DNA of 64,000 nucleotides from assembly GCA_963765765.1 (NCBI GenBank), contig CAVXYC010000027.1, positions 96,001-160,000 on the forward strand, given 5' to 3'. The position numbers were made by a program, and so were the translations under genes. This document shows positions 45,368 to 62,046 of this stretch, piece by piece (position 1 is the first letter of the stretch; each line of letters opens with the position of its first letter). The notes beneath the pieces were generated by a model that worked only from the letters and a program-made list of their open reading frames with translations, did no database searches and was not told the DNA's origin. This DNA is from an uncultured Chloroflexia bacterium. Lineage in GTDB: Bacteria; Chloroflexota; UBA6077; JACCZL01.

Positions 45368-46171
45368 TCAGCTCTTGAGTTCGATGCGCTCGATGCGGTA
45401 CCGAACTACGCCGGCCGGCACCTCTACCTCTACGGTATCTCCTACGCCTCGGCGATCCAGGGCGCGGCCCACAGGCGACTGAATGGAGATCTTCCCTTTA
45501 CGGGCATCAATCTCTCCCGGACCGACCAGGGTGTACGTAATCTCCTCGTCCTCCTCGAGATCAGCGACCACAACAGTTGAGCCGATACTCACACGAGTGG
45601 AATTGGTGACTTCTACAACCTGGCCCGCCGCAATTGTCGACTTGATTTCACTCATCTTGCGGTGGATTTCGGCGAGGTGCTGTTTGGCCGCGTCATACGG
45701 CGCGTTCTCGCGGAAGTCCTTGTCCGCGGCGGCAAGCCGCAGCTCTTGCTCGGCTGCCGGCCGCTCTACGTTGTCAAGTCGATCCAGCTGTGTTTGGAGC
45801 TGCTCCAGACCTGCGGGCGTAAGCTGAATCGTTGGCTCGTCGGGCCGGTCGGAGTCGTTCTTGGTAGCGCTGTTGGTGCGCCGCTTGATGCGTAGCGCCG
45901 TGGCAACCGCCTCATCGAGCAGCTTGCGCTTGCGCGCAAATGTGAAGAAGTCCTTGAGTGGCTCGAGGCGTGTGCTGTTTCCAGAACCGTTATCTTCCTG
46001 CTGCGCCTGGTATCGTTCGAGATCAAGACGGGTCACCGTGCGGACCGGTCGATCAGACCCGAACCAACGTCCAAAGCGCTGAAGCTCACGAGCAACAGCG
46101 GGACGATGCTCCGACGCGACGACTGTCACATACTCGGACATCGCCTCGGATAGTGTTACGTCAACAGCCAT
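45368..46171 (-). CDS. greA: transcription elongation factor GreA with an extra ~110-aa N-terminal domain
   Basis: DFRENAPYDAAK, ISIQSPVGRAL in the C-terminal ~155 aa. Confidence 0.88.
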   Translation of the reverse strand: MAVDVTLSEAMSEYVTVVASEHRPAVARELQRFGRWFGSDRPVRTVTRLDLERYQAQQEDNGSGNSTRLEPLKDFFTFARKRKLLDEAVATALRIKRRTNSATKNDSDRPDEPTIQLTPAGLEQLQTQLDRLDNVERPAAEQELRLAAADKDFRENAPYDAAKQHLAEIHRKMSEIKSTIAAGQVVEVTNSTRVSIGSTVVVADLEEDEEITYTLVGPGEIDARKGKISIQSPVGRALDRRGVGDTVEVEVPAGVVRYRIERIELKS

Positions 46172-47901: not shown

Positions 47902-49326
47902 CTAAGGGATGATCGATGAGGCCGCCTGGACAGCGAGTGGAATGAACACCCCCGACAAAATCCCCACAATGAGAACACCCGCGGTGGCCGTGAGCAGAGT
48001 GAGGGCAGGTCCAACATCCACGATGACCGGCTTGTCCACAGTCGGCTCCACCAGATACATCTGGCGGACGACACGCGTGTAGTAGTAGAGCGAGATGGCG
48101 GAATTCACGACGCCCAACAAGACCAGCCAGTACATGCCGCTCTGCGCCACTGTCCAGAACAGATACAGTTTGGAGAAGAACCCAACCAGCGGTGGCAGGC
48201 CCGCCAGCGACAGCAACGCCAGCGACATCGCTAGCGCGAGCAGCGGCGCCCGTCGACCAAGACCCGAAAAGTACTCGAGATCCTCGTCCGGGATGTATCG
48301 CGAAAGCATGATGATGACGGTGAATGCCGCAATGTTCGTCAGCATGTAGGACAACAAATAGAAAAGAACAGCCGAATAGCTCTCCTGCGTCGCGACGGCT
48401 GGCCCCATCAACATGTAACCCACGTGGGCAATGCTGGAATAGGCCAGCAAGCGCTTCACATTACTCTGGACGAGCGCGGCAAGATTCCCGATGGTCATGG
48501 TCAATGCCGCCAGCACGGCCATGAGCGCGGTCCAGTCGCCCTGGATAGATGGAAGTGCGACCGCGAGAATCCTCAACAAAACAGAAAAACCGGCGGCCTT
48601 TGATGCAACCGAGAGGAACGCGGTAACTGGCGTTGGCGCCCCCTCGTAAACGTCAGGGGTCCACATCTGAAATGGCACGGCCGAGATCTTGAACCCGAAG
48701 CCAGCGACGATCATCGACAACGCCAGCAGCGCCGCGGCGCTGGTATCACTAGTAAGCGCACCACGAATGCCCGATAGCGTTGTGACGCCGGTCGCGCCGT
48801 AGAGTAGCGCCATTCCGAACAGCAGAATGGCCGTCGACATGGCGCTGAGGACGAAGAACTTCAGACCCGCCTCACTGGAGCGCAGATCACGCTTCGCCCA
48901 GCTTGCCATGAACGCCAATGAAAGACTGGTAAGCTCGAGCGACACAAAGATGGAGATAAGCTCCGTGGAGCTCGCCATCAGCATGAATCCGGTTGTACAG
49001 AAAAGGATCGCCGAATAGAACTCGGCTTCGTACTGTTCCACCAGATCGGTAAATGTCTCCGAGGCCAGCAGGACGAGGCCGGCAGCCAGCAGGAACAAGA
49101 ACTTGAAGAAGATCGAGTAGTTGTCAACCGTGTAGGCGCCAAAGAATGACGTCTCACTGCGTCCAATGAGCGCTCCTGTCGCGCCCATGGCACCAACCAC
49201 GCCCACCAGAGCAAGGTAGAGCAGTGGCCGGCGCGATGCTCCAGCCGGTAGGAACACGCCCACCAGCAGGACCACACAGGCCCACACTGTCAGGACAAGC
49301 TCAGGAGCTAGAAGAGAGAGATTCAA
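47902..49326 (-). CDS. nuoN: NADH-quinone oxidoreductase subunit N
   Basis: EAGLKFF, FKISAVPFQMWTPDVYEGAP, KRLLAYSSIAH. Confidence 0.93.
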   Translation of the reverse strand: MNLSLLAPELVLTVWACVVLLVGVFLPAGASRRPLLYLALVGVVGAMGATGALIGRSETSFFGAYTVDNYSIFFKFLFLLAAGLVLLASETFTDLVEQYEAEFYSAILFCTTGFMLMASSTELISIFVSLELTSLSLAFMASWAKRDLRSSEAGLKFFVLSAMSTAILLFGMALLYGATGVTTLSGIRGALTSDTSAAALLALSMIVAGFGFKISAVPFQMWTPDVYEGAPTPVTAFLSVASKAAGFSVLLRILAVALPSIQGDWTALMAVLAALTMTIGNLAALVQSNVKRLLAYSSIAHVGYMLMGPAVATQESYSAVLFYLLSYMLTNIAAFTVIIMLSRYIPDEDLEYFSGLGRRAPLLALAMSLALLSLAGLPPLVGFFSKLYLFWTVAQSGMYWLVLLGVVNSAISLYYYTRVVRQMYLVEPTVDKPVIVDVGPALTLLTATAGVLIVGILSGVFIPLAVQAASSIIP

Positions 49327-49344
49327 GTCGTCCTCCGTCCGAAC

Positions 49345-50823
49345 CTATCCGAACAACCGCGCGATAGGAGTTACTCCGCCGGCGATCATCTCGGCAATGA
49401 CGTTGGGGAACACACCCACCAGGATGATGACCGCAACCAGCGTGCCGACGGCAAACCCTTCACGGGCGGACATGTCAGTGAGATGTGAGTCGCGCCATTC
49501 TTGACCAAGCGGACCCATGAAGACTCGCTCCAGCATCCACAAGAGATATCCGGCGGTGATGACGATGGCGAACGCTCCGATGACCGTGTACCACTGCCAG
49601 ACGGGGAACGAGCCAATGAACACCAGGAACTCACCGACGAAGCCGCTCATTCCTGGCAAGCCAAGCGAAGCAAGCGCGGCCACAACAAAGAGCGCGCCGG
49701 CCACAGGCATGCGCTGGGCTAATCCAGCCATTCGAGGAATTTCGCGCGTGTGCGTACGGTCGTAGACGACACCCACCATCATGAACAAGAGCCCTGTGAT
49801 CGTTCCGTGTGTAACCATCTGGAACACCGCGCCCTGGAAACCAGTTTGCGTCAGCGCAGACAGACCCAGGATGACGTATCCCATGTGGCTGATGCTGGAG
49901 TTCGCGATCATCTTCTTGAGGTCGGTCTGAGCCAGCGCCACCATGGCCCCATAGATGATATTGACCACCGCAAGTACGGCCAGGAGCCAGGAAAGCTGCT
50001 GAGCGGCCTCAGGGAGCACACTCACGCACAATCGCAGTAGACCGTAGCCGCCCATTTTCAGTAGCACACCTGCGAGTAGCACACTCCCTGGGGTGGGCGC
50101 CTCAACGTGAGCATCCGGAAGCCAGGTATGGAACGGAAAGATCGGCACCTTTACCGCGAAACCGATCGCCAGAAGCAGGAACAATCCAACCTGGACGCTC
50201 GGCGCAAGTGAGCGAGCCGCGGTAGAAAGCTCGACCATGTCGAAGCTACGTCCGCCTGTGAAGAAGAACAGCGCCAGAATGCCCAGCAGCATGAAGGCAC
50301 TGCCGACCACCGTGTACACGATGAATTTCATAGCCGCATACTCGCGGCGAGGTCCGCCCCAGATGCCGATGAGCAGGTACATCGGAATCAGTTCCAGCTC
50401 CCAGAAGAGGAAGAACAGGAAGAAATCAAGCGACGTGAATACGCCCGAGACTGCTGTCTGAAGGATCAACAGGATAGAGAAATAGAGCTGCGGACGATGA
50501 GTCTGATTCCACGAGATGACAACGGCCAGGAATCCCAGCAACGTGTTGAGGACGAGCAGCGGAAGGCTGATCCCATCCACTCCTAGCTTGTAGTAGGACC
50601 TAATCGGCGGAAGCCACATGAATCCGCCGTCGAATTGAAACCCAGCAATCGCGCTGTTAAAGGCCGCGAAGAGCCAGATAGACAATCCAAGTGTCGCGAT
50701 CGTAATGATCGCGGCTATCCGTCGCGGTGCACCTGTACCGCCGCCACCAATGATCCCGATGAGGATCGCCCCGAGCATCGGGAGCCAGACAACGAGCTGA
50801 AGGACGAGGGTCTCAAGCGACAT
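49345..50823 (-). CDS. nuoM: NADH-quinone oxidoreductase subunit M
   Basis: FWELELIPMY, HTWLPDAHVEAPT, LLKMGGYG. Confidence 0.93.
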   Translation of the reverse strand: MSLETLVLQLVVWLPMLGAILIGIIGGGGTGAPRRIAAIITIATLGLSIWLFAAFNSAIAGFQFDGGFMWLPPIRSYYKLGVDGISLPLLVLNTLLGFLAVVISWNQTHRPQLYFSILLILQTAVSGVFTSLDFFLFFLFWELELIPMYLLIGIWGGPRREYAAMKFIVYTVVGSAFMLLGILALFFFTGGRSFDMVELSTAARSLAPSVQVGLFLLLAIGFAVKVPIFPFHTWLPDAHVEAPTPGSVLLAGVLLKMGGYGLLRLCVSVLPEAAQQLSWLLAVLAVVNIIYGAMVALAQTDLKKMIANSSISHMGYVILGLSALTQTGFQGAVFQMVTHGTITGLLFMMVGVVYDRTHTREIPRMAGLAQRMPVAGALFVVAALASLGLPGMSGFVGEFLVFIGSFPVWQWYTVIGAFAIVITAGYLLWMLERVFMGPLGQEWRDSHLTDMSAREGFAVGTLVAVIILVGVFPNVIAEMIAGGVTPIARLFG

Positions 50824-50873
50824 GACGGCTCCAGCTCACGATGACACCTACAGGAGAAGTATTCGCGGTGGCG

Positions 50874-52817
50874 TTAACGGACACGAACCACCACCATAAA
50901 GAACGCGATGATGACGAGTCCGCCAAAAACTGCCAGGGCATACGACTGCACGCGACCCGTCTGCGCCAGGCGCAAAGCGCCGCCAGCGTTCACCGTAACT
51001 CGCGCGATGCCATTGACCGCGCCATCGATAACACGCCGGTCGAAGTTCGCCAGCGTCGCCGCGCCACCAATGAATATGGTGCCAATCAGCGCGTTGTAGA
51101 GTCGATCGAATCCATACTTATTAATGGCGCCCACGTATATCGGCCGGAATACCGCTGTCATTGTGGCCGGCGAAAGTGCCTTTCTGTAGTACATCGCCCA
51201 TGCGAGACCAATGCCCGCGACAGCGAGAAGTACTGAACCGCCCGCAACCATCACATTTGGCTCCACATGCTCCGGATGGCCGTGCTCTAGAAAGTTTCCG
51301 AAGCCGTTCCCAAAGAGTGGCGCGCCCCATAGACCACTCAGTACGCTGGGTACGGCAAGGATGAGCAGGGGAGCCGCCATCAAGGGGTACTTGTCCACCC
51401 ACCCGTGAGGGTGCTCGTGGCCGCGCTGCTCGCCGCTGAATGTCATGAACACCGCTCGGAACATGTAGAACGCCGTGAGGAACACGGTAATCATGGCGAA
51501 GACGAAGAGCACAACGAAGACGGGCTCCCCGTGAGTTGCCCTATCAAACGTTGCCAGCAGGACCTCATCCTTGCTCCAGAACCCACTGAGTGGCGGGATA
51601 CCCGCAAGCGAAAGTGCCGCGATCACCATCGTGATACCGGTGATACGGAGAGGCTTCCAGAGACCGCCCAGAAGGCGCATGTCTTGCGTGCCGGCGGCGT
51701 GAATAATGCTCCCCGCGGTGAGAAATAGGAGCGCTTTAAAAAACGCGTGATTAAACAGGTGGAAAATGCTGGCTGAGTATGCTCCGGCTCCCAGCGCCAG
51801 CATCATGTAGCCAAGCTGACTAATGGTGGAATAGGCCATGACCCGCTTGAGGTCAAATGACACAACACCCATCGTTGCCGCGAAGATGGCCGTGAATCCG
51901 CCGATCACGGCCACCACCATCATCGCGGTAGCCGAGTGCTCGGTGATCGGCAGCATTCTGGCCATCAGGTAGACGCCGGCCGCAACCATGGTGGCCGCGT
52001 GGATCAGTGCGGAAACGGGTGTTGGGCCCTCCATGGCATCCGGCAGCCACACGTGGAGCGGGAATTGAGCGGACTTACCGACCGCCCCAGCGAATACGAG
52101 CAGCGCAGCGATGGTTACATCGGCGCTCGTGAAAGTGCCAGTCGCCGCCGCTTGCTCGATCTCGGTGAATCCGAGGCCCCCGATTCTCCACCAGATATAG
52201 AGAATGCCAAGGAGCAAACCAAAGTCGCCGAGTCGTGTGGTGACGAACGCCTTCTTGGCCGCTTCGAAAGGGGAAGGACGCTTGTCTACTTCATTCTCTA
52301 ACTGCGGCTCAGCGGGCGGACGGTCATACCAGAATCCGATAAGGAGGAATGATCCGAGCCCAACCCCTTCCCAGAACAGATACACGGCCAGCAGGTTATT
52401 GGACAGCACCAGCCCCAACATGGCGCAGGTAAAGAGACACAAAAACGCAAAGAACCGCCCATATCCGGGATCGAGCTCCCAATGTCCATGGTGCTCGTGA
52501 CGCATGTACCCCTGCGAATATAGGTGAACCAATAAACTGACTGAGGTGACGACAACCAGCATGATTACCGCCAGTGGGTCGACTCGCATGCCGAGCACCA
52601 GCGACTCCGTGGCTCCCAGTGAGAGCCACGGGATACTGACGTCCAGCTCATTGCCCGCCATGACCTCTTGAAAGACCAACAACGAGATGACGAACGACAG
52701 AGCGACGGCCGCTGTAGCCAACGCCGCGGCCGCCTCTTTCTGCCGTCGCAGGAACAAAATGATGAACGCGAAGGCGGCAAAGGGTAGGAGCGGGATGAGC
52801 CAGGCTTGATTGATCAC
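50874..52817 (-). CDS. nuoL: NADH-quinone oxidoreductase subunit L
   Basis: GKSAQFPLHVWLPDAMEGPTPVSALIHAATMV, HAFFKALLFL. Confidence 0.95.
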   Translation of the reverse strand: MINQAWLIPLLPFAAFAFIILFLRRQKEAAAALATAAVALSFVISLLVFQEVMAGNELDVSIPWLSLGATESLVLGMRVDPLAVIMLVVVTSVSLLVHLYSQGYMRHEHHGHWELDPGYGRFFAFLCLFTCAMLGLVLSNNLLAVYLFWEGVGLGSFLLIGFWYDRPPAEPQLENEVDKRPSPFEAAKKAFVTTRLGDFGLLLGILYIWWRIGGLGFTEIEQAAATGTFTSADVTIAALLVFAGAVGKSAQFPLHVWLPDAMEGPTPVSALIHAATMVAAGVYLMARMLPITEHSATAMMVVAVIGGFTAIFAATMGVVSFDLKRVMAYSTISQLGYMMLALGAGAYSASIFHLFNHAFFKALLFLTAGSIIHAAGTQDMRLLGGLWKPLRITGITMVIAALSLAGIPPLSGFWSKDEVLLATFDRATHGEPVFVVLFVFAMITVFLTAFYMFRAVFMTFSGEQRGHEHPHGWVDKYPLMAAPLLILAVPSVLSGLWGAPLFGNGFGNFLEHGHPEHVEPNVMVAGGSVLLAVAGIGLAWAMYYRKALSPATMTAVFRPIYVGAINKYGFDRLYNALIGTIFIGGAATLANFDRRVIDGAVNGIARVTVNAGGALRLAQTGRVQSYALAVFGGLVIIAFFMVVVRVR

Positions 52818-52821
52818 GGTC

Positions 52822-53145
52822 TTATCCCTTCAACAAGTCAATCTGGTCGACCCGCACCGTACGGCGGAGTCGATAGACCGCGATCACAATAGCTAATCCA
52901 ACCGCCGCCTCAGCAGCGGCGACCGTAATGATGAAGATGGCGAAGATCTGACCAGCCATCTCCTGCGCAGGCTGGAGATATCGGGCGAAGGCCACCATGA
53001 TGATATTCACGCCGTTGAGCATGAGCTCAATTGAGAGCAGCACCCCGATGGCATTCCGCCGTGAAAGCGCGCCAAACATGCCCAGCGAAAACAGCGCCGC
53101 TCCGAGAACCAGAAAATGCTGGAGTGTGAGCGGGAAAAGTGACAT
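52822..53145 (-). CDS. nuoK: NADH-quinone oxidoreductase subunit K
   Basis: RRNAIGVLLSIELMLN, AAAEAAVGLA. Confidence 0.93.
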   Translation of the reverse strand: MSLFPLTLQHFLVLGAALFSLGMFGALSRRNAIGVLLSIELMLNGVNIIMVAFARYLQPAQEMAGQIFAIFIITVAAAEAAVGLAIVIAVYRLRRTVRVDQIDLLKG

Positions 53146-53148
53146 TGG

Positions 53149-53646
53149 CTAATTCTCCCGCGCGATCACGAGCGCGCCAATGAGTGCGGCGGTCAGCAGC
53201 ACAGACGCAATCTCGAACGGCAGCACGTAGTTGGTTAGCAGAAGCTGACCTATCCTTTCCGTGGTAGGTGCATTGACCACATCAGTCCGGATGCGCCACG
53301 GCGTTATCAACATGACACTTGTGGTGATCACGAAGACCACCGTGGACAAGATACCCGCTGCAAGGGTTTGCCCCTGACTGGCGAGGCCTGGAATCTCAAC
53401 TTGGCCAGGTGTGAGCATGATCGCGAACAACATCAGGATCATGATGGCGCCGACATAGATGAGGATCTGCGCCACCGCTAGAAAGTCGGCGTTGAGCAGT
53501 AGATAGACCACGGCAACGCCGCCAAACGAAAGGACGAGTGCCAGGGCGCTTCGAACCATCTCCTTTGAGCGGAGCATTCCTACGGCACCGCACAGGCAGA
53601 CGACGACTGCGACCCAGAATGTGATCGCTGCGAATACGTCCGTCAT
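53149..53646 (-). CDS. nuoJ: NADH-quinone oxidoreductase subunit J
   Basis: QILIYVGAIMILMLFAIML, LPFEIASVLL. Confidence 0.92.
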   Translation of the reverse strand: MTDVFAAITFWVAVVVCLCGAVGMLRSKEMVRSALALVLSFGGVAVVYLLLNADFLAVAQILIYVGAIMILMLFAIMLTPGQVEIPGLASQGQTLAAGILSTVVFVITTSVMLITPWRIRTDVVNAPTTERIGQLLLTNYVLPFEIASVLLTAALIGALVIAREN

Positions 53647-53648
53647 GC

Positions 53649-54455
53649 CTATGTGCCCCCATCAGTCTTTGGGGCGCCTCGGCCGATCCCAGCCGCCGCG
53701 GCGCGCTCTTTGTAGATTCGGGCGCGATCGGAGGCGCTCAGCCCCTCGAGATCAGCAGTCTTGGAGAGAGGACCTCCAGGGCCCGCTGGCGCAGCCGAAG
53801 GCGCGACAGCAGCGGGCGCCGGTGGCGCTTCAGTCCCTGTTGGCGTGAGCGGAGCTCCGGGCGCAGGTCGCGAACCCGGCGGGGGGGCGTCGGCTGACGT
53901 TTGTGCTGGGCGGGCCGGAGTGGAGGCCGCCGCTCCGGCTGCACGAGCGGCCGGAGCAGGCCTTTGAGCCGCTGAAGCTTCCTGACCAGACCTTCCGCGC
54001 TTCACACCCTGGATGTACTCCATGGCAGCATCAACCTCAGGCGTACCCGGAATTCGGAGCTGGTGCATATTGAACACCAGCGACTGCTGGCGATCGTATG
54101 TCCCAAGCTCGAAATCGGGCGCCATGACAATCGCCCTGAACGGACATGCTTCAACGCACAGAGCGCACTCAATGCAGCCGCCCATATCGAGGTCGAAGCG
54201 ATCGAGCACCTTTTTGCGATCGGGCCCCGCCTGATATTCAATTTTGATGACATCCACGGGGCACGCAATCGCGCATGCGCCACATGAGGTGCAGCGGAGC
54301 TCACCGTTCTCCAATTCGTAAATTAGGCGGGGCCGACCACGAGTCCAGGGCGGCATCTCCATCTTCTCTTCCGGGTATTGAATGGTCACCGGCTTCGAGA
54401 AGAAGAAGTGCCGAAGCGTCGTCGCCATGCCCGCCAGAATTCCGAGTCCCAGCAT
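53649..54455 (-). CDS. nuoI: NADH-quinone oxidoreductase subunit I with a long C-terminal extension
   Basis: VTIQYPEE, CTSCGACAIACP, CIECALCVEACP. Confidence 0.92.
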   Translation of the reverse strand: MLGLGILAGMATTLRHFFFSKPVTIQYPEEKMEMPPWTRGRPRLIYELENGELRCTSCGACAIACPVDVIKIEYQAGPDRKKVLDRFDLDMGGCIECALCVEACPFRAIVMAPDFELGTYDRQQSLVFNMHQLRIPGTPEVDAAMEYIQGVKRGRSGQEASAAQRPAPAARAAGAAASTPARPAQTSADAPPPGSRPAPGAPLTPTGTEAPPAPAAVAPSAAPAGPGGPLSKTADLEGLSASDRARIYKERAAAAGIGRGAPKTDGGT

Positions 54456-54461
54456 CGTCGA

Positions 54462-55523
54462 TTACCTCGGCATCAGGTGCGGCAATACGAACGCGACCGC
54501 GAGCGCCGTCAATGCGACGTTCGCCAATGCGATCGGGAAGAGCCGCTTCCACGCGAAATGCATCAATTGGTCGTAGCGGAGTCTCGGCAACGTTCCGCGG
54601 AACCAGAAGAATACGAAGATCAGGGCACTCACCTTGCCCATGAACCAGATGTACGGCGGCAGAATCGGCCCGTCCCAGCCTCCCAGAAAGAACACCGCGC
54701 CCAGCGCCGAGATGACGAAGACGTTGGCGTACTCCGCCAAGAAGAACAGGGCGAAACGCATACCGCTGTATTCGGTATGAAAACCGGCGATGATCTCTGA
54801 TTCAGCCTCTACCAGGTCAAAGGGCGTCCGATTGCTCTCCGCGGTTCCAGCGATCAAGAAGATTAGGAATGCCAGCGGCCCAATGGGGAAGAAAAAAATG
54901 TACCACAGACCTCCGGACTGCGCCTTAACGATGTCCTGAAGCGACATCGAGCTAGCCAGGAGTACAGGTACAAGGACCGCCAAAATGCCAGGTATCTCGT
55001 AGCTTACGAACTGAGCAGCCGCACGCATGCCTCCCAACAGTGAGTACTTGTTGTCAGAGGCCCAGCCCGCCATGACGAAGCCAATGCTCGGCAAGCCGCT
55101 CATGGCGATAACAAAGAGGACCGCGACGTTGAGATCCGCCACCGCCAGCCCTGGTGCAAACGGAATAACCGCCCAGACCATGAGCGAAGCGCCCAGGACA
55201 ATGATTGGCGAGAGAGCGAACAACAGCCTGTCCGCACCCGCGGGGACAATGTCTTCCTTCGTCAGCAGCTTCACCGCGTCAGCGACCGGCTGCAGGAGTC
55301 CGAACGGCCCTACACGGTTCGGCCCATATCGATCCTGCATACGGGCGATGACCTTGCGCTCGAAATATACCAGCGCCATCACTACAACCGGGATGATCGC
55401 GAAGAGAATGGCGATGCCAAGGAGGCTCAAGATGGCGCTGGCGAGCCAGTCAGGCATGAAACTGACTAACACACCGTAAAGCAGGTCTCGGATAAAGCCG
55501 AATGGGTTGTAGATGAAATCCAC
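54462..55523 (-). CDS. nuoH: NADH-quinone oxidoreductase subunit H
   Basis: ERKVIARMQDRYGPNRVG, NRTPFDLVEAESE, PRLRYDQLM. Confidence 0.95.
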   Translation of the reverse strand: MDFIYNPFGFIRDLLYGVLVSFMPDWLASAILSLLGIAILFAIIPVVVMALVYFERKVIARMQDRYGPNRVGPFGLLQPVADAVKLLTKEDIVPAGADRLLFALSPIIVLGASLMVWAVIPFAPGLAVADLNVAVLFVIAMSGLPSIGFVMAGWASDNKYSLLGGMRAAAQFVSYEIPGILAVLVPVLLASSMSLQDIVKAQSGGLWYIFFFPIGPLAFLIFLIAGTAESNRTPFDLVEAESEIIAGFHTEYSGMRFALFFLAEYANVFVISALGAVFFLGGWDGPILPPYIWFMGKVSALIFVFFWFRGTLPRLRYDQLMHFAWKRLFPIALANVALTALAVAFVLPHLMPR

Positions 55524-56662
55524 TAGCGGTCGACCTCGCCCATAACGATATCGAAGCTTCCCAGGATGACCACTGCATCCGCGACCTTATGTCCAATGAC
55601 GAGTTGAGACAGGACGCCGAGGTTGATGAAGCTGGGAGCACGGACCTTGAATCGATAGGGCGACGTGGTGCCGTCAGAAATCAGGAAGAAGCCGAGCTCC
55701 CCTTTGGGGGCCTCAATTCGGGCGTATGCAGAGCCTTTGGGGGGACGAAGTACTTTGGGTAGCCGCGCACGGAACTCACCCTCGGGAATGTCCGCTAACG
55801 CCTGCTTGAGAATGCGTACTGACTCACGCATCTCCGCGACACGAACCAGGTAGCGATCGTAGCAATCGCCGTTGTATCGAATCGGGACGTCCCAGTCGAA
55901 GCGATCGTAGATTCCGTAGGGCTCCGCACGTCGGACGTCGTAATTGATGCCGCTGGCGCGCGCGATTGGACCGGTGATGCTAAAGGCCTTGGCGAGATCG
56001 GGTGGAAGGTACCCAACGCCGATCGTACGCGCCCTGAAGATCTCGTTGTTCGTGAGAAGTGACTCATACTCATCGATCTTGCCCGGCATCTCGTCAACAA
56101 AAGCGCGGGCCTTCTCGATGAACTCGGGAGTCAGATCACGCGCGACGCCGCCAAAGCGTATGTAACTCGGGTTCATGCGCACGCCCGCGCACAGCCCAAA
56201 AAGATCAAGAATCACCTCGCGCTCACGGAACGCGTACACCAGCGGAGTGAACCACGTGCCCACGTCTGCGCCAAATGTGCCGATTGCCACAAGGTGACTG
56301 GCCAAGCGATTCAGCTCGACCGTAATGACTCGGATGAAGTCACCGCGCTCAGGAATCTCGAGACCGGTAAGCTTTTCTACGGCCAATGCATAGGCAAGGT
56401 TATTGGACATCGGGGCCAGATAATCCATGCGGTCTGTCAGTGTTACCGCCTGGACCCACGTTCGCGCCTCACCGAGCTTCTCGGTAGATCGATGGAGGTA
56501 GCCCATGACGGGTCGCGCGGAAATAACCGTCTCGCCGTCGAGCTGCAGGACCAGTCGAAATACCCCATGCGTGCTGGGGTGCTGTGGTCCCATGTTGAGG
56601 GTCATCTTCCCCTCTTCAGTGGCTTCCGCCACCTCCATGGTCGCGCCCTCAAACATACTCAA
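55523..56662 (-). CDS. nuoD: NADH-quinone oxidoreductase subunit D
   Basis: NMGPQHPSTHGVFRL, DRMDYL, EAPKGELG, DIVMGEVDR; no NiFe CxxC motifs. Confidence 0.95.
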   Translation of the reverse strand: MSMFEGATMEVAEATEEGKMTLNMGPQHPSTHGVFRLVLQLDGETVISARPVMGYLHRSTEKLGEARTWVQAVTLTDRMDYLAPMSNNLAYALAVEKLTGLEIPERGDFIRVITVELNRLASHLVAIGTFGADVGTWFTPLVYAFREREVILDLFGLCAGVRMNPSYIRFGGVARDLTPEFIEKARAFVDEMPGKIDEYESLLTNNEIFRARTIGVGYLPPDLAKAFSITGPIARASGINYDVRRAEPYGIYDRFDWDVPIRYNGDCYDRYLVRVAEMRESVRILKQALADIPEGEFRARLPKVLRPPKGSAYARIEAPKGELGFFLISDGTTSPYRFKVRAPSFINLGVLSQLVIGHKVADAVVILGSFDIVMGEVDR

Positions 56663-56724
56663 ACTCCGATGCCAGTCCTGAGGCTGCCGAGCCGCACCGC
56701 GGAATAACGACCGTCATCGCGCCC

Positions 56725-57552
56725 TCAACCATGGTCATACTCCGACGTTCGTCCCGAGAGCGGCGCTTCGCGCTGTTGCTCAGCTCCATAACGAAGATGG
56801 TGAACCAGGACGTACTGGAAGTCCATCTCGAAGTCCTTACGCAGCGGGTGCCCTGGGAAATCGTCGTCCAGAAGAATGCGTCGAAGCTCGGGGTGTCCGG
56901 CGAACTTAATGCCCATGAGGTCGTAGACTTCGCGCTCCTGGTAATCGGCACCCGGCCATAACGGGGTCAGCGAATCGACCAACGGGTTCGCCTCAGGCTC
57001 CAAAGAAACTCTGAGCACGAGACAACCCGGTTGCTTCGCATAGTCATACCCGTAGAGGTGATAGAGCAGCTCCAGGCGATCTTTCCAGTCAACGGCCGTT
57101 ATGGATGACAGATAGTCGTAGCCAAGCTCATCACGCGCGGCTCGCGCCGCCGCGACAAGATTGTCACGATCTATCGTCACTTCAACGTATCCATGAACAC
57201 GCTCCCACTTGAGATCGGGGGCAATGCCCTTGAGCACAGGGAGCTCGGAGGGATCTGGCTCAGGCTCTTCTACCTTAGGTTCCGGCGCGGGCTTGGCAGC
57301 CGCGGCAGGTGCAGGAGCCGCCGGCTTTGGTGCAGCAGGAGCCGTGGGCGCAGGAGCGGACGGTACAGCGGCGGCTGGCGCGGGCGGAGGTGCCGCTGCC
57401 GGGGCGGGCGCATCAGCGCTTGCCGCTGCCGGCGCACGGCCAATACCCGCTGCGGCGGCGCGCTCCTTGTAAATCCGCGCGCGCTCCGACGGAGTTAAGT
57501 TGGCAATGTCGTCCGTCTTAGCGAGCGGGTTGCCGATTGGTTCATCAGCCAT
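56725..57552 (-). CDS. nuoC: NADH-quinone oxidoreductase subunit C with a long N-terminal extension
   Basis: EREVYDLMGIKFAGHPELRRIL...GHPLRKDF. Confidence 0.92.
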   Translation of the reverse strand: MADEPIGNPLAKTDDIANLTPSERARIYKERAAAAGIGRAPAAASADAPAPAAAPPPAPAAAVPSAPAPTAPAAPKPAAPAPAAAAKPAPEPKVEEPEPDPSELPVLKGIAPDLKWERVHGYVEVTIDRDNLVAAARAARDELGYDYLSSITAVDWKDRLELLYHLYGYDYAKQPGCLVLRVSLEPEANPLVDSLTPLWPGADYQEREVYDLMGIKFAGHPELRRILLDDDFPGHPLRKDFEMDFQYVLVHHLRYGAEQQREAPLSGRTSEYDHG

Positions 57553-57572
57553 ACGTTCTTCTTGTCTCCGCT

Positions 57573-58178
57573 CTAGCTCTTGTTAGCGGTGGCTTCCATA
57601 TTGATCTTGCGCTGAAGCTGGATAACCGCGTGCAGTAGCGCATCTGGCCGGGGCGGACACCCCGCGATGTACACGTCAACCGGGAGGAAATTATCGATCC
57701 CCGGAACGGTGCTATACGAGCCCTGATAAGGGCCGCCGGCGATCACGCAGGTCCCCATGGCAATGACGTACTTCGGGTCCGACATCTGGTCATAGAGTCG
57801 GCGCACCGCGGGCGCCATCTTCGTTGTGACGGTGCCCGAGACGATCATCACGTCTGCCTGCCGCGGTGACGGACGAAACACCTCTGCTCCGAATCGGGCG
57901 ATGTCAAACCGAGCAGTACCTACGGCCATCATCTCGATAGCACAGCAGGCGAGCCCAAATGTCATTGGCCAGAGCGATGAAGTCCGCGCCCAGGCGATGA
58001 GCGAGTCCAGCGAGGTGACCATTGCGTGGCCCTTGAGGTCCCACGGAACGTCAAGTCGAGACTCGAGAATCTGATCTGCCGGGAGGGGCTGGGCGAAATC
58101 GAGCGTCGTCCGGTCGTCGTCAATGTTAATGACCTTCGGATACTCCTGATTGAACTTGTCGTGGTTATTTACTGACAT
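57573..58178 (-). CDS. nuoB: NADH-quinone oxidoreductase subunit B
   Basis: [28 protein letters not shown]. Confidence 0.95.
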
Positions 58179-58202
58179 TGGCCTGGCTCCGTTGGGCGCC
58201 CT

Positions 58203-58559
58203 TTACATCCACTCAAGGTCACCCTTACGCCACGCGTAGGCGTAGCCTACAAGCAAGAACGCGACAAAGATGCCCATCTCAATCAGGGCGAAAAGGCCAA
58301 GCTGGTCGAAAGCCACGGCCCACGGAAAGAGGAAGAGCACCTCCACGTCAAAGATGACGAAGATGAGCGCGTAAAGATAATAACGAGTGCGGAACTGGAT
58401 GTGCGTTGGCCCGATTGTGGTCATGCCGCTCTCATACGGCTGCGATTTCACGGTGTCCGGACGCTTCGGCGCCACGAGCCGCGAAAGCCCCAGTGGCACC
58501 ATCGGAAAGATCAGCGCAACGATGAGAAAGAGCGCAACAGGACCATAAGATTCAAGCAA
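58203..58559 (-). CDS. nuoA: NADH-quinone oxidoreductase subunit A
   Basis: PYESG, YYLYALIFVIFDVEVLFLFPWA. Confidence 0.93.
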   Translation of the reverse strand: MLESYGPVALFLIVALIFPMVPLGLSRLVAPKRPDTVKSQPYESGMTTIGPTHIQFRTRYYLYALIFVIFDVEVLFLFPWAVAFDQLGLFALIEMGIFVAFLLVGYAYAWRKGDLEWM

Positions 58560-58861: not shown

Positions 58862-60292
58862 ATGGCGCCGCGAGACCTTCGCGCATTCATCAAACAACTC
58901 GAGCAGGCTGGTGAGCTTCGACGCATCGCCGCAGAGGTCAGTCCCCATCTAGAGATCACCGAGATTGCCGATCGAGTCATGAAGACGGGTGGCCCCGCCC
59001 TTCTTTTTGAGAACGTCGAAGGCTCAACAATGCCGGTGCTGATCAACGCGCTCGGATCACGGCGTCGGATGAGCATGGCACTGGGAGTCGACGATCTGGA
59101 CGAGCATGCTCAACGCATTCGGAAGCTCGTCACCATGGCACCGCCATCCGACCTTGCGGGCAAGCTCCGCGCGCTTGGAGATTTGAAGGATATCGCCAGC
59201 ATCGGTCCGCGAGGTGTATCGCACGGCCCGTGTCAGGAAGTGATCGTTCCAGAGCCATCGCTGAAGCAGCTTCCGGTTCTCACTTGCTGGCCTGATGATG
59301 GTGGCCCCTACATCACCCTTGGACTAGTGTTTACGCGCGATCCGCGCACCGCCCGCCGTAACGTTGGGCTCTATCGCGTTCAGGTCTACAACGAGCGAGA
59401 GGCGGCAATGCACTGGCAGATCCACAAGGGCGGTGCGGATCATTACCGTGAAGCCGGTAAGCGGCTGGAAGTTGCCGTCGTCATTGGCGCCGATCCAGCC
59501 ACGGTCTACAGCGCATCCGCGCCGTTGCCACCAACAATCGACGAACTGCTCTTCGCCGGCTTCCTCCGCCGAGCCCCCGTCGAGACGGTGAAATGCCGCA
59601 CCGTTGATATCGAAGTGCCCGCGCAGGCTGAGATCGTACTGGAAGGTTACGTGGATCCGGATGATCTACGGGTCGAGGGCCCGTTTGGCGACCACACCGG
59701 CTACTATTCACTTGCCGACAACTACCCCGTCTTTCATCTAACGATGATGACGCACCGACGTAATCCGATCTATCACACGACCATCGTTGGACAGCCGCCC
59801 ATGGAGGACTACTACATGGGTAAGGCCACGGAGCGACTTTTCCTTCCGCTCATGCAGCTCGTTGCCCCGGAGATCGTGGACGTCAATATGCCGGCGGAGG
59901 GCGTGTTCCACAACCTTGTGCTCGTCTCCATCAAGAAGAGATTCCCCGGTCATGCGCACAAGGTCATGTATGCGCTCTGGGGCATGGGGCAGATGATGTT
60001 CGCTCGCAACATCATCGTTCTGGATGACGACGTGGACGTGCAGAACCTTTCCGAGGTTGCCTGGCGGGTGACCGCGAATGTCGATGCACGGCGAGATCTC
60101 GTCATCCTGGATGGCCCTGTTGACGTCCTCGACCACGCCTCGCCCCAGCCGCTCATCGGCGGGAAGCTGGGTATCGACGCCACGCGCAAGACACCCGCGG
60201 ACGGCTACACCCGGGAGTGGCCGCCCGATATCGTGATGTCGCCAGACATCAAAGCGCTGGTGGATCGTCGGTGGAGTGAATACGGGATCTAG
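58862..60292 (+). CDS. UbiD-family decarboxylase (menaquinone biosynthesis, MqnL-like)
   Basis: EITEIADR, WPDDGGPYIT, EGPFGDHTGYYS, GKLGIDATRK. Confidence 0.9.
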   Translation: MAPRDLRAFIKQLEQAGELRRIAAEVSPHLEITEIADRVMKTGGPALLFENVEGSTMPVLINALGSRRRMSMALGVDDLDEHAQRIRKLVTMAPPSDLAGKLRALGDLKDIASIGPRGVSHGPCQEVIVPEPSLKQLPVLTCWPDDGGPYITLGLVFTRDPRTARRNVGLYRVQVYNEREAAMHWQIHKGGADHYREAGKRLEVAVVIGADPATVYSASAPLPPTIDELLFAGFLRRAPVETVKCRTVDIEVPAQAEIVLEGYVDPDDLRVEGPFGDHTGYYSLADNYPVFHLTMMTHRRNPIYHTTIVGQPPMEDYYMGKATERLFLPLMQLVAPEIVDVNMPAEGVFHNLVLVSIKKRFPGHAHKVMYALWGMGQMMFARNIIVLDDDVDVQNLSEVAWRVTANVDARRDLVILDGPVDVLDHASPQPLIGGKLGIDATRKTPADGYTREWPPDIVMSPDIKALVDRRWSEYGI

Positions 60293-60440
60293 TCGTCAGC
60301 ACCCTCTGCAATACGCCGCTGATCCGCTAAGTTCCCATGCTTAGGTCTCGGGTAACCCACCCGGCCAGGACTCCCCGGTGGTGCGCCCTGAAATTTTCCA
60401 TTCGTTACACTTCTTGCGGATCTGATCAAGGAGCCGGCTA

Positions 60441-61283
60441 CTGAAACTCCTTCTCGAAAACGTCAAATTCGAGCACACCATCTTCGCACTGCCGTTTGCC
60501 TACCTGGGGATGGTGCTGGCGGCCGGCGGCTGGCCTACCTGGCACCAGCTGATCTGGGTAACGGTTGCGATGGCCGCGGCGCGAACGATGGCCATGTCGC
60601 TCAATCGCGCCATCGATCGGGAGATTGACGCCAGGAACCCGCGCACCGCGATACGTCCGATTCCTAGCGGCCGACTGAGCGTCAGCAAGGTATGGATCGC
60701 GGCAGGCGTTTCGGCCGGAGTACTCACCTTCGCTGCCTGGCAGCTTAATGAGCTGGCAGTAAAGCTGCTGCCCGTGGCGATGATCATCCTCACTCTGTAC
60801 CACTACACCAAACGGTTCACCTGGCTCTGCCATCTGGGGCTTGGCATTGCCGATGGAGGCGCCCCACTGGGTGGGTGGCTGGCCGTGACAGGCGCCATCG
60901 ACCCACCGGCCTGGCTCCTGTTCATCGCCGTAACAACGTGGGTGGGGGGCTTTGATCTCATTTACGCATGCCAGGACGTCGACTTCGACCGCGCCAACGG
61001 CTTGCATTCCGTCCCGGTGCGCTTCGGCATAGCCAAAAGCCTATGGTCCGCGCGCATTTCGCATCTCATCACGCTGCTCGCGCTGGCCGGCGTCGGTTTC
61101 ATGCTCAATCTTGGGCCGCTGTACTGGGCCGGATGGCTAGCCGCGCTTGGGCTGTTAGCGTACGAGCATAGTCTGGTCTCCCCACGCGATCTGTCGAAAC
61201 TGAATGTCGCGTTCTTCAATATCAATGGCTACATTGGCGTGATCGTTCTCGGATTCACGCTGGCAGCCGTGCTCGCGCGCTGA
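60441..61283 (+). CDS. UbiA-family prenyltransferase (MqnP-like), CTG start
   Basis: KFEHTIFALPFAY, NRAIDREIDARNPRTA, DLIYACQDVDFD; AAGGAG 7 nt before CTG 60441; in-frame TGA at 60423. Confidence 0.88.
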   Translation: MKLLLENVKFEHTIFALPFAYLGMVLAAGGWPTWHQLIWVTVAMAAARTMAMSLNRAIDREIDARNPRTAIRPIPSGRLSVSKVWIAAGVSAGVLTFAAWQLNELAVKLLPVAMIILTLYHYTKRFTWLCHLGLGIADGGAPLGGWLAVTGAIDPPAWLLFIAVTTWVGGFDLIYACQDVDFDRANGLHSVPVRFGIAKSLWSARISHLITLLALAGVGFMLNLGPLYWAGWLAALGLLAYEHSLVSPRDLSKLNVAFFNINGYIGVIVLGFTLAAVLAR

Positions 61284-61308
61284 TGCAGCGTTTATCTGTA
61301 GGCATCCA

Positions 61309-62046
61309 GTGACCCAGTCCCAGCCACATCCTATTCTGCCGAATAGCCAGGATCGCTCCCGCTTCGTCAGCGAGATGTTCGGTCGAATTGCATCGCGTTA
61401 CGATCTGATGAATACCGTCATGACGTTCGGTCAGGATGCATGGTGGCGGCGCCTGGCTGTTGCAGCGGCAGCTCCGCCTACCGATGGCGTGGCGCTGGAC
61501 GTTGGTACCGGCACGGGAAAAGTCGCTTTCGATCTCGCCCGCCGGATGACTGGCGGACGGGTCATCGCGAGCGACTTCTCCGAGGCAATGCTTCGCCAGG
61601 GGCAGCGTTCCCTTGAATCCACGCCCGCGGCGCGCCGGGTCCAGTTTGTTGTCGGAGATGCACTGCACCTGCCCTGCCCGAACGCCAGCATGGATTGCGT
61701 CACATCGGCCTTCACCGTGCGGAATCTCACGAGCGCGGTGGAGGGCTTCCGCGAGATGGCCAGAGTGACTCGCCCGGGCGGGCGTGTTGTCTGCCTTGAG
61801 ATCACACGATTGGATAATCCATTGCAGCGCAAGCTCTTCGGTATCTATTTCAGCGGCCTCGTTCCACTTATCGGCCGGCTCATTAGCGGTGACGACACGG
61901 CGTATCGCTATCTTCCGGCTTCAGTAGACGCATTCCACAATCCTTATGAGCTGGCGGTCCAGATGCGCGAAGCCGGCCTGGTCTTCATCACGCGGAGAAT
62001 GCTGGGCATGGGCACCGTCACAATGCTGACGGGCACCAAGCCCTAG
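61309..62046 (+). CDS. menG: demethylmenaquinone methyltransferase (UbiE/MenG)
   Basis: MFGRIASRYDLMN, LDVGTGTG, RVTRPGG, AYRYLPASV. Confidence 0.9.
   Translation: MTQSQPHPILPNSQDRSRFVSEMFGRIASRYDLMNTVMTFGQDAWWRRLAVAAAAPPTDGVALDVGTGTGKVAFDLARRMTGGRVIASDFSEAMLRQGQRSLESTPAARRVQFVVGDALHLPCPNASMDCVTSAFTVRNLTSAVEGFREMARVTRPGGRVVCLEITRLDNPLQRKLFGIYFSGLVPLIGRLISGDDTAYRYLPASVDAFHNPYELAVQMREAGLVFITRRMLGMGTVTMLTGTKP

Follow-up and report, generated by a model that had tools for sequence, protein, structure and literature searches.

The stretch of DNA analysed here (the window; 64,000 nucleotides, G000:C27:96001-160000, where G000 is the genome of an uncultured Chloroflexia bacterium, 92% complete) carries an operon for respiratory complex I in which two subunits, NuoC and NuoI, bear copies of one 32-residue module on their tails. 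The operon holds 11 subunits; nuoD directly abuts nuoH and nuoEFG are missing, in agreement with the first-pass annotation, which had described a complex I without NuoEFG. The features concerned are listed in window coordinates; pLDDT is the predicted local distance difference test score.

47902 to 58559, minus strand: 11-subunit complex I operon nuoA-B-C-D-H-I-J-K-L-M-N without nuoEFG (open reading frames; Pfam matches for A, B, C, D, H, I, J and K; L, M and N from translations and mutual similarity)
56725 to 57552, minus strand: nuoC, 275 residues, with an N-terminal tail (PF00329 at residues 125-244)
57436 to 57531, minus strand: module copy 1, NuoC residues 8-39, short helix, turn and 14-residue helix (sequence match; AlphaFold2 helices at residues 14-17 and 21-34)
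57259 to 57432, minus strand: Pro/Ala linker of NuoC, residues 41-98, predicted disordered (Ala+Pro 78%; pLDDT <50 across most of residues 39-85)
53649 to 54455, minus strand: nuoI, 268 residues, 2x[4Fe-4S] core and C-terminal tail (Fer4 families at residues 54-108; NuoI models)
53679 to 53774, minus strand: module copy 2, NuoI residues 228-259 (sequence match)
53775 to 53990, minus strand: Pro/Ala/Gly linker of NuoI, about residues 156-227 (composition)

The two copies share a core of 16 residues that is identical at all 16 positions, in NuoI at residues 244-259 (53679-53726) and in NuoC at residues 24-39 (57436-57483), both on the minus strand. Ten of the 16 core codons differ between the copies, each by a single third-position base. 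Both counts had been given in the first-pass annotation, and both were reproduced. Over the whole module the alignment is gapless, with 23/32 residues and 61/96 nucleotides identical. Assuming independent codons and the codon usage of this operon, 10.0 +/- 1.8 differing core codons are expected; since 10 were observed, the synonymous sites are saturated. When the tails were shuffled (n=2000), the longest common run was at most 9 residues, compared with the 16 observed. The likeness between NuoI and NuoC is thus real and reflects selection acting on the protein, and the saturation, together with the presence of the module in orthologues, bears out the earlier claim of conservation at the protein level without recent DNA duplication. 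The 16-residue stretch is the family consensus and is also present on copies that relatives carry on another protein, subunit IV of a split Rieske/cytochrome b complex, so the identity is no special match between the NuoC and NuoI copies of this genome. The tails had further been called Pro/Ala-rich linkers, which holds for both: the NuoC tail extends about 100 residues ahead of the core with the composition listed above, and by composition count Ala+Pro make up 57% of NuoI residues 156-228. A six-frame tblastn search and three hidden Markov models found no third copy in G000 (next-best E 0.27, 1.6 and 1.8), and the subunit IV of this genome has a short tail from which the module is missing.

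In an AlphaFold2 model built from 34 copies (pLDDT 86, predicted template modelling score 0.53), a short helix leads through a turn into a second helix of 14 residues. When NuoC was modelled whole, the module reached a pLDDT of 59-73 whereas the linker stayed below 50, in an overall model that is poor (mean 59). A helix-turn-helix fold on a disordered linker is therefore predicted. Among the 34 copies one Tyr is invariant and two Arg are present in 33/34 and 32/34; on a helical wheel these three lie at 40, 0 and 340 degrees, forming a conserved Arg-Tyr-Arg face. Ser or Thr stands at the helix cap in 19/34 copies and Pro instead in 11/34, and the net charge of the module ranges from 0 to +3. 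Between the NuoC proteins of G000 and its relative G001, identity is 24/32 in the module, 30/58 in the linker and 158/177 in the core. Pfam gave no family for the 27 members scanned, and a profile search of PDB gave no match (best E 0.25). Fold searches likewise pointed to no family (Foldseek; VIA-align with a 36-residue model, best Z 3.2), and the ESM Atlas returned unnamed clusters only, with recognition below threshold; these misses do not demonstrate a new fold. In a literature search that left most subscription papers outside its reach, we found no description of the module, nor of one motif common to complex I and the Rieske/cytochrome b complex. The module is real, lineage-restricted and apparently undescribed.

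To define its distribution, a profile of 27 copies was run against 39 genomes of the order and matched 23 of them, G006 included. Among 49 matching places, two weak ones were dropped before counting (G004, with an internal stop, and G029), one in G006 was set aside and 46 were assigned. All 46 strong copies sit on three hosts, namely the N-terminus of NuoC (12), the C-terminus of NuoI (16) and the N-terminus of subunit IV (18); for four copies at contig ends the host was assigned from the gene next to it (G001 NuoI, G003 subunit IV, G011 NuoC and G038 NuoC). No other credible host was found in the searches of the order, the phylum and large protein collections. Ferredoxins, FpoF-like proteins and remote NuoEFG, which had been proposed as further places to look, carry no module. 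Neither of the two outcomes that the first-pass annotation had named as refutations was seen: the module does recur on orthologous NuoC and NuoI, and it does not turn up across unrelated low-complexity tails. Among complex I operons, only those without NuoEFG were found to bear it.

Placement differs by lineage. G000 and G001 carry the module on NuoC and NuoI and not on subunit IV; in G002, G007, G008 and G009 its hosts are NuoI and subunit IV (doubled in G009), with NuoC lacking it; seven genomes of family f3 carry it on all three. In G005, a genome 97% complete in 6 contigs, it occurs twice on subunit IV and on neither complex I subunit, and in G013 it occurs twice on NuoI and not on subunit IV, with NuoC not found. 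Tandem doubling is thus seen in G005, G009 and G013. NuoC lacks the module in G002, G003, G004, G005, G007, G008 and G009; in G004, a genome 80% complete, the tails are short and a subunit IV was not found. Families f2, f4, f6 and f7 gave no strong match. Another conserved segment, some 50 residues long, is common to several NuoC tails without the module (L075, L077, L079 and L163, from G009, G007, G008 and G003, respectively); only G007, G008 and G009 match it strongly, and G003 weakly. The NuoI of other Chloroflexota families (L149-L152, L157) bears a different conserved C-terminal extension, and in families f4 and f6 (L086-L088, L090, L096, L098-L102) nuoC is immediately followed by nuoH, with no nuoD between them.

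A search of 401 genomes of the phylum, with 19 candidates scored per genome, gave strong matches in 10 genomes only, all in this order. The 16 weak matches outside the order (E 7e-4 to 0.017) were judged on inspection to be chance helices or non-coding frames; four fall at the beginning of a small f27-family membrane protein. Among 1.84 billion representative proteins there were 41 matches at E <=0.001, mostly the three known hosts or fragments of them. Eight of the 41 are neither these hosts nor plausible fragments: P0029, P0035, P0037, P0038, P0040 and P0041 are partial matches (E 1e-7 to 3e-4), and P0013 and P0019 look chimeric. Beyond these eight, P0023, P0024 and P0026 look like chimeric fragments as well. 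None of the eleven was counted as a host. In a collection of 5.8 billion proteins, searched at lengths of 151-482 residues, Pfam or the source name identifies 12 of 14 matches as a known host, and the remaining two are unlabelled and have the length of subunit IV. For longer hosts (483-2000 residues), none of 244 candidates reached E <=1, which is weak evidence. The known range is three families of one order, from metagenome-assembled genomes.

The third host belongs to a complex whose cytochrome b is split. In relatives, separate genes for a cytochrome b6-like protein and subunit IV lie beside Rieske and cytochrome c genes. The operon order is cytochrome b, subunit IV, Rieske and cytochrome c, of which the first three were seen in G000. 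Subunits of the complex match PF00032, and the ExtP model scores above its cut-off and the ExtQ model below. The cytochrome b of G000 has a Cys within the motif expected for heme ci. The tails of subunit IV contain a second short Arg/Ala helix just ahead of the membrane core, also in genomes that have lost the module (G000 C15:270326-271162 and orthologues). The part of PMC3509893 available to us describes a split cytochrome b with the heme ci Cys and, beyond the b6f complex, reports heme ci as confirmed for this Cys only in Heliobacteria.

Comparison of the copies suggests that the module can move between hosts. In a module tree, which is weak (37 columns, bootstrap unsettled), the f3 variants of NuoC and NuoI form a single clade (support 96/99), which points to copying between the two genes. 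The NuoC copy of G037 matches its own subunit IV copy at 19/23 positions and its own NuoI copy at only 9/23, and is therefore best read as a replacement from subunit IV. The NuoC copy of G000 is nearest to a subunit IV copy (21/23), and in this genus we infer a move from subunit IV to NuoC. Within genus g15 the complex I copies are identical to the subunit IV copy at 8-14/23 positions. The tandem pair of G013 differs in codons at 4/20 shared residues, and some tandem pairs, such as this one, are recent. In G015 the sites usual for the module, on the N-tail of NuoC and the C-tail of NuoI, each bear two copies of a Trp/Lys/Gly motif that is about 18 residues long and unrelated to the module (L080:1317-1600 and L080:5120-5372; P0057, P0058). 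G015 carries it nowhere else at E <0.1, and the NuoC fragment of a diverged relative retains both copies. A FastTree of NuoB, NuoD and NuoH puts G015 together with the families that bear the module, its exact position being weakly supported. The two complex I tails thus switch motif in step, an argument that both serve a single interaction.

Other complex I genes and candidate electron donors in G000 were also surveyed. A second nuo operon on contig C30 (C30:145761-157670) includes NuoEFG, with the only NuoF match of the genome, and its NuoC and NuoI are tail-less and without the module; no true NuoM match was found in it. Ferredoxins, fused and split electron transfer flavoproteins (ETF) and a FadF/EtfD-like gene are present, all without the module, and neither the ferredoxins nor the two ETF systems are linked to the operon lacking nuoEFG. 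Ferredoxins are located at C8:32675 and C23:403891, and the fused EtfB-EtfA gene lies at C27:177108-179177. In the second ETF (C20:143050-144943) the alpha gene is split over frames, and the FadF/EtfD-like gene (C27:217637-219942) runs through three frames; either may be an assembly error. Operons without nuoEFG and without the module occur in G004 and G005, and in G016 and G020 of another family. On either side of the nuo operon, the window also holds a GreA with an additional N-terminal domain of about 110 residues that has no Pfam match (45368-46171, minus strand) and divergent genes that we take to be UbiD-, UbiA- and MenG-like and, from their translations, presumably serve menaquinone biosynthesis (58862-62046, plus strand).

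What a mechanism has to explain is conservation at the protein level on three hosts, with lineage-specific placement, tandem doubling and, in G015, the occupation of both complex I tails by another motif. We give an even chance to the proposal that the module is a portable docking mini-domain, putatively tethering both complexes to one shared cytoplasmic partner. The conserved Arg-Tyr-Arg face would bind a protein, and the tails of NuoC, NuoI and subunit IV would all face the cytoplasm; for subunit IV we assume the topology of cytochrome b6f. Several flexible copies could raise the local concentration of the partner by avidity. A complex I without NuoEFG would have to import electrons through a soluble carrier, and a cytochrome b of the heme ci type could use the same one. 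The likeliest kind of partner would itself be such a carrier or donor, of the ferredoxin or ETF type, but this is a tentative guess. Several points weigh against this docking proposal. The searches yielded no partner protein, and a net charge of 0 to +3 would give only a weak electrostatic hold on an acidic ferredoxin. According to the accessible part of PMC6992706, the ferredoxin of cyanobacterial NDH-1 binds NdhI/NdhH directly, so that a tail would be unnecessary; the four genomes with NuoEFG-less operons but no module on them (G004, G005, G016 and G020) likewise make it dispensable for that type of enzyme. The divergence within g15 (8-14/23) could mean separate partners, and the module tree has only 37 columns with unsettled bootstrap. 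Moreover, distribution data cannot tell a foreign partner from self-association.

Self-association is the closest of the other explanations: the module would bind its own copies, and the tails, requiring nothing from outside, would cross-link neighbouring complexes (I-I, III-III or I-III) so that they cluster or form a loose supercomplex. Of 22 strongly matching genomes (G006 aside), 20 have at least two copies, the operon being truncated or unfound in the single-copy genomes G003 and G017, and both the tandem doubling in G005, G009 and G013 and the joint change of the two complex I tails in f3 and G015 would suit such pairing. A fixed I-III tether nevertheless fails, because bridging is impossible in G000, G001 and G013, which have no subunit IV copy, and in G005, which has no complex I copy; the Arg-Tyr-Arg face would also fit an acidic foreign surface better than itself. 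We regard self-association as unlikely. Rather unlikely, too, is a regulatory or address label, that is, a site for a kinase or modifying enzyme, an adaptor for assembly or proteolysis, or an anchor to anionic lipid. Any subunit of the target complex could carry such a label, and the invariant Tyr and the Ser/Thr at the helix cap in 19/34 copies would suit it, but Pro replaces Ser/Thr in 11/34, and a 32-residue unit with a conserved Leu/Met core probably exceeds what most modification sites need.

The interpretation offered in the first-pass annotation, a device specific to complex I that recruits the donor replacing NuoEFG or clasps NuoI to NuoC, is partly supported in that complex I bears the module only in operons without nuoEFG (the NuoEFG-containing operon of G000 is without it) and in that NuoC and NuoI both carry it in G000, G001 and the seven f3 genomes. 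As a general function it is contradicted, because subunit IV is also a host and placement varies. A fixed clasp fails since four genomes (G002, G007, G008 and G009) have the module on NuoI but not on NuoC, which lacks it in G003 and G004 as well, and G005 has it on neither. A recruiter for complex I alone fails since subunit IV is the commonest host (18/46 copies) and since operons without nuoEFG occur without the module, that of G005 in a genome that carries it only on subunit IV. We consider such a device improbable. Least credible of all is a repeat without function that recent duplication or low-complexity drift has maintained. Its neighbours are indeed low-complexity linkers and some tandem pairs are recent (4/20 codons differ in G013), yet synonymous saturation alongside 16/16 identity effectively rules it out, and the module is conserved over three families with a restricted host range.

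Known systems resemble the module in layout or manner, and by sequence it belongs to none of the tails of Bacillaceae NuoC, EtfD and RsxC. The 2-oxoacid dehydrogenase E2 component docks a partner enzyme through its peripheral subunit-binding domain, which is small, helical and carried on Pro/Ala linkers, and this serves as a model for how the module may work; the domain did not appear among Pfam matches of the module at E <=10 or in the PDB sequence search, and it is not listed among the fold matches (best Z 3.2). The NuoC of an 11-subunit complex I without NuoEFG likewise has a long N-terminal extension in Bacillaceae, on NuoC alone, whereas the module is also found on NuoI and subunit IV. 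No sequence homology was found between the two: NF005832 (430 positions), which we take to be the Bacillus form of NuoC, matches only the core at NuoC residues 139-242, and no such protein is among the 41 profile matches. As far as the accessible text of PMC3144371 goes (a survey of the Moparthi and Hagerhall type), that extension is proposed as a contact for partner proteins and is found only in Bacillaceae NuoC. The mycobacterial EtfD, a membrane Fe-S quinone reductase, likewise has conserved repeats in a disordered cytoplasmic tail, which the available portion of PMC13083937 reports as predicted by AlphaFold3 to bind the soluble carrier ETF. The host is different, however: G000 has only two module copies, both in the nuo operon, its EtfD/FadF-like gene has none, and the module is common to two complexes. 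RsxC/RnfC, in what PMC10587187 makes accessible, is a respiratory Fe-S subunit whose Ala/Pro linkers similarly bear short Ala/Arg/Lys-rich units in variable copy number. Its C-terminal 40-residue repeats differ in sequence and form tandem arrays of 0-5, compared with 1-2 copies of the module over three hosts, and no RnfC is among the profile matches. By analogy, this suggests that the unexplained repeats in these respiratory tails may be lineage-specific solutions of one kind.

The module is more interesting than at first reading because it spans two respiratory complexes, complex I and the Rieske/cytochrome b complex, and so points to a cytoplasmic-side link that is undescribed as far as the literature we found. 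For most 11-subunit complexes I the electron donor is unknown, and a published search for partners failed (PMC3144371, in the text available). A short conserved tag with a predicted fold is a direct bait for pull-down or a structure screen. We would go further only speculatively, and hold it unlikely, in proposing, for this order, a single respiratory unit made up of the NuoEFG-less complex I and the split Rieske/cytochrome b complex, in which one soluble electron carrier is captured by a transferable address tag. If so, since the complexes would work side by side, the tag could pass between NuoC, NuoI and subunit IV, become doubled, or give way to a new tag on the two complex I tails simultaneously, and it would offer a bait for the long-missing donor of the 11-subunit complex I.

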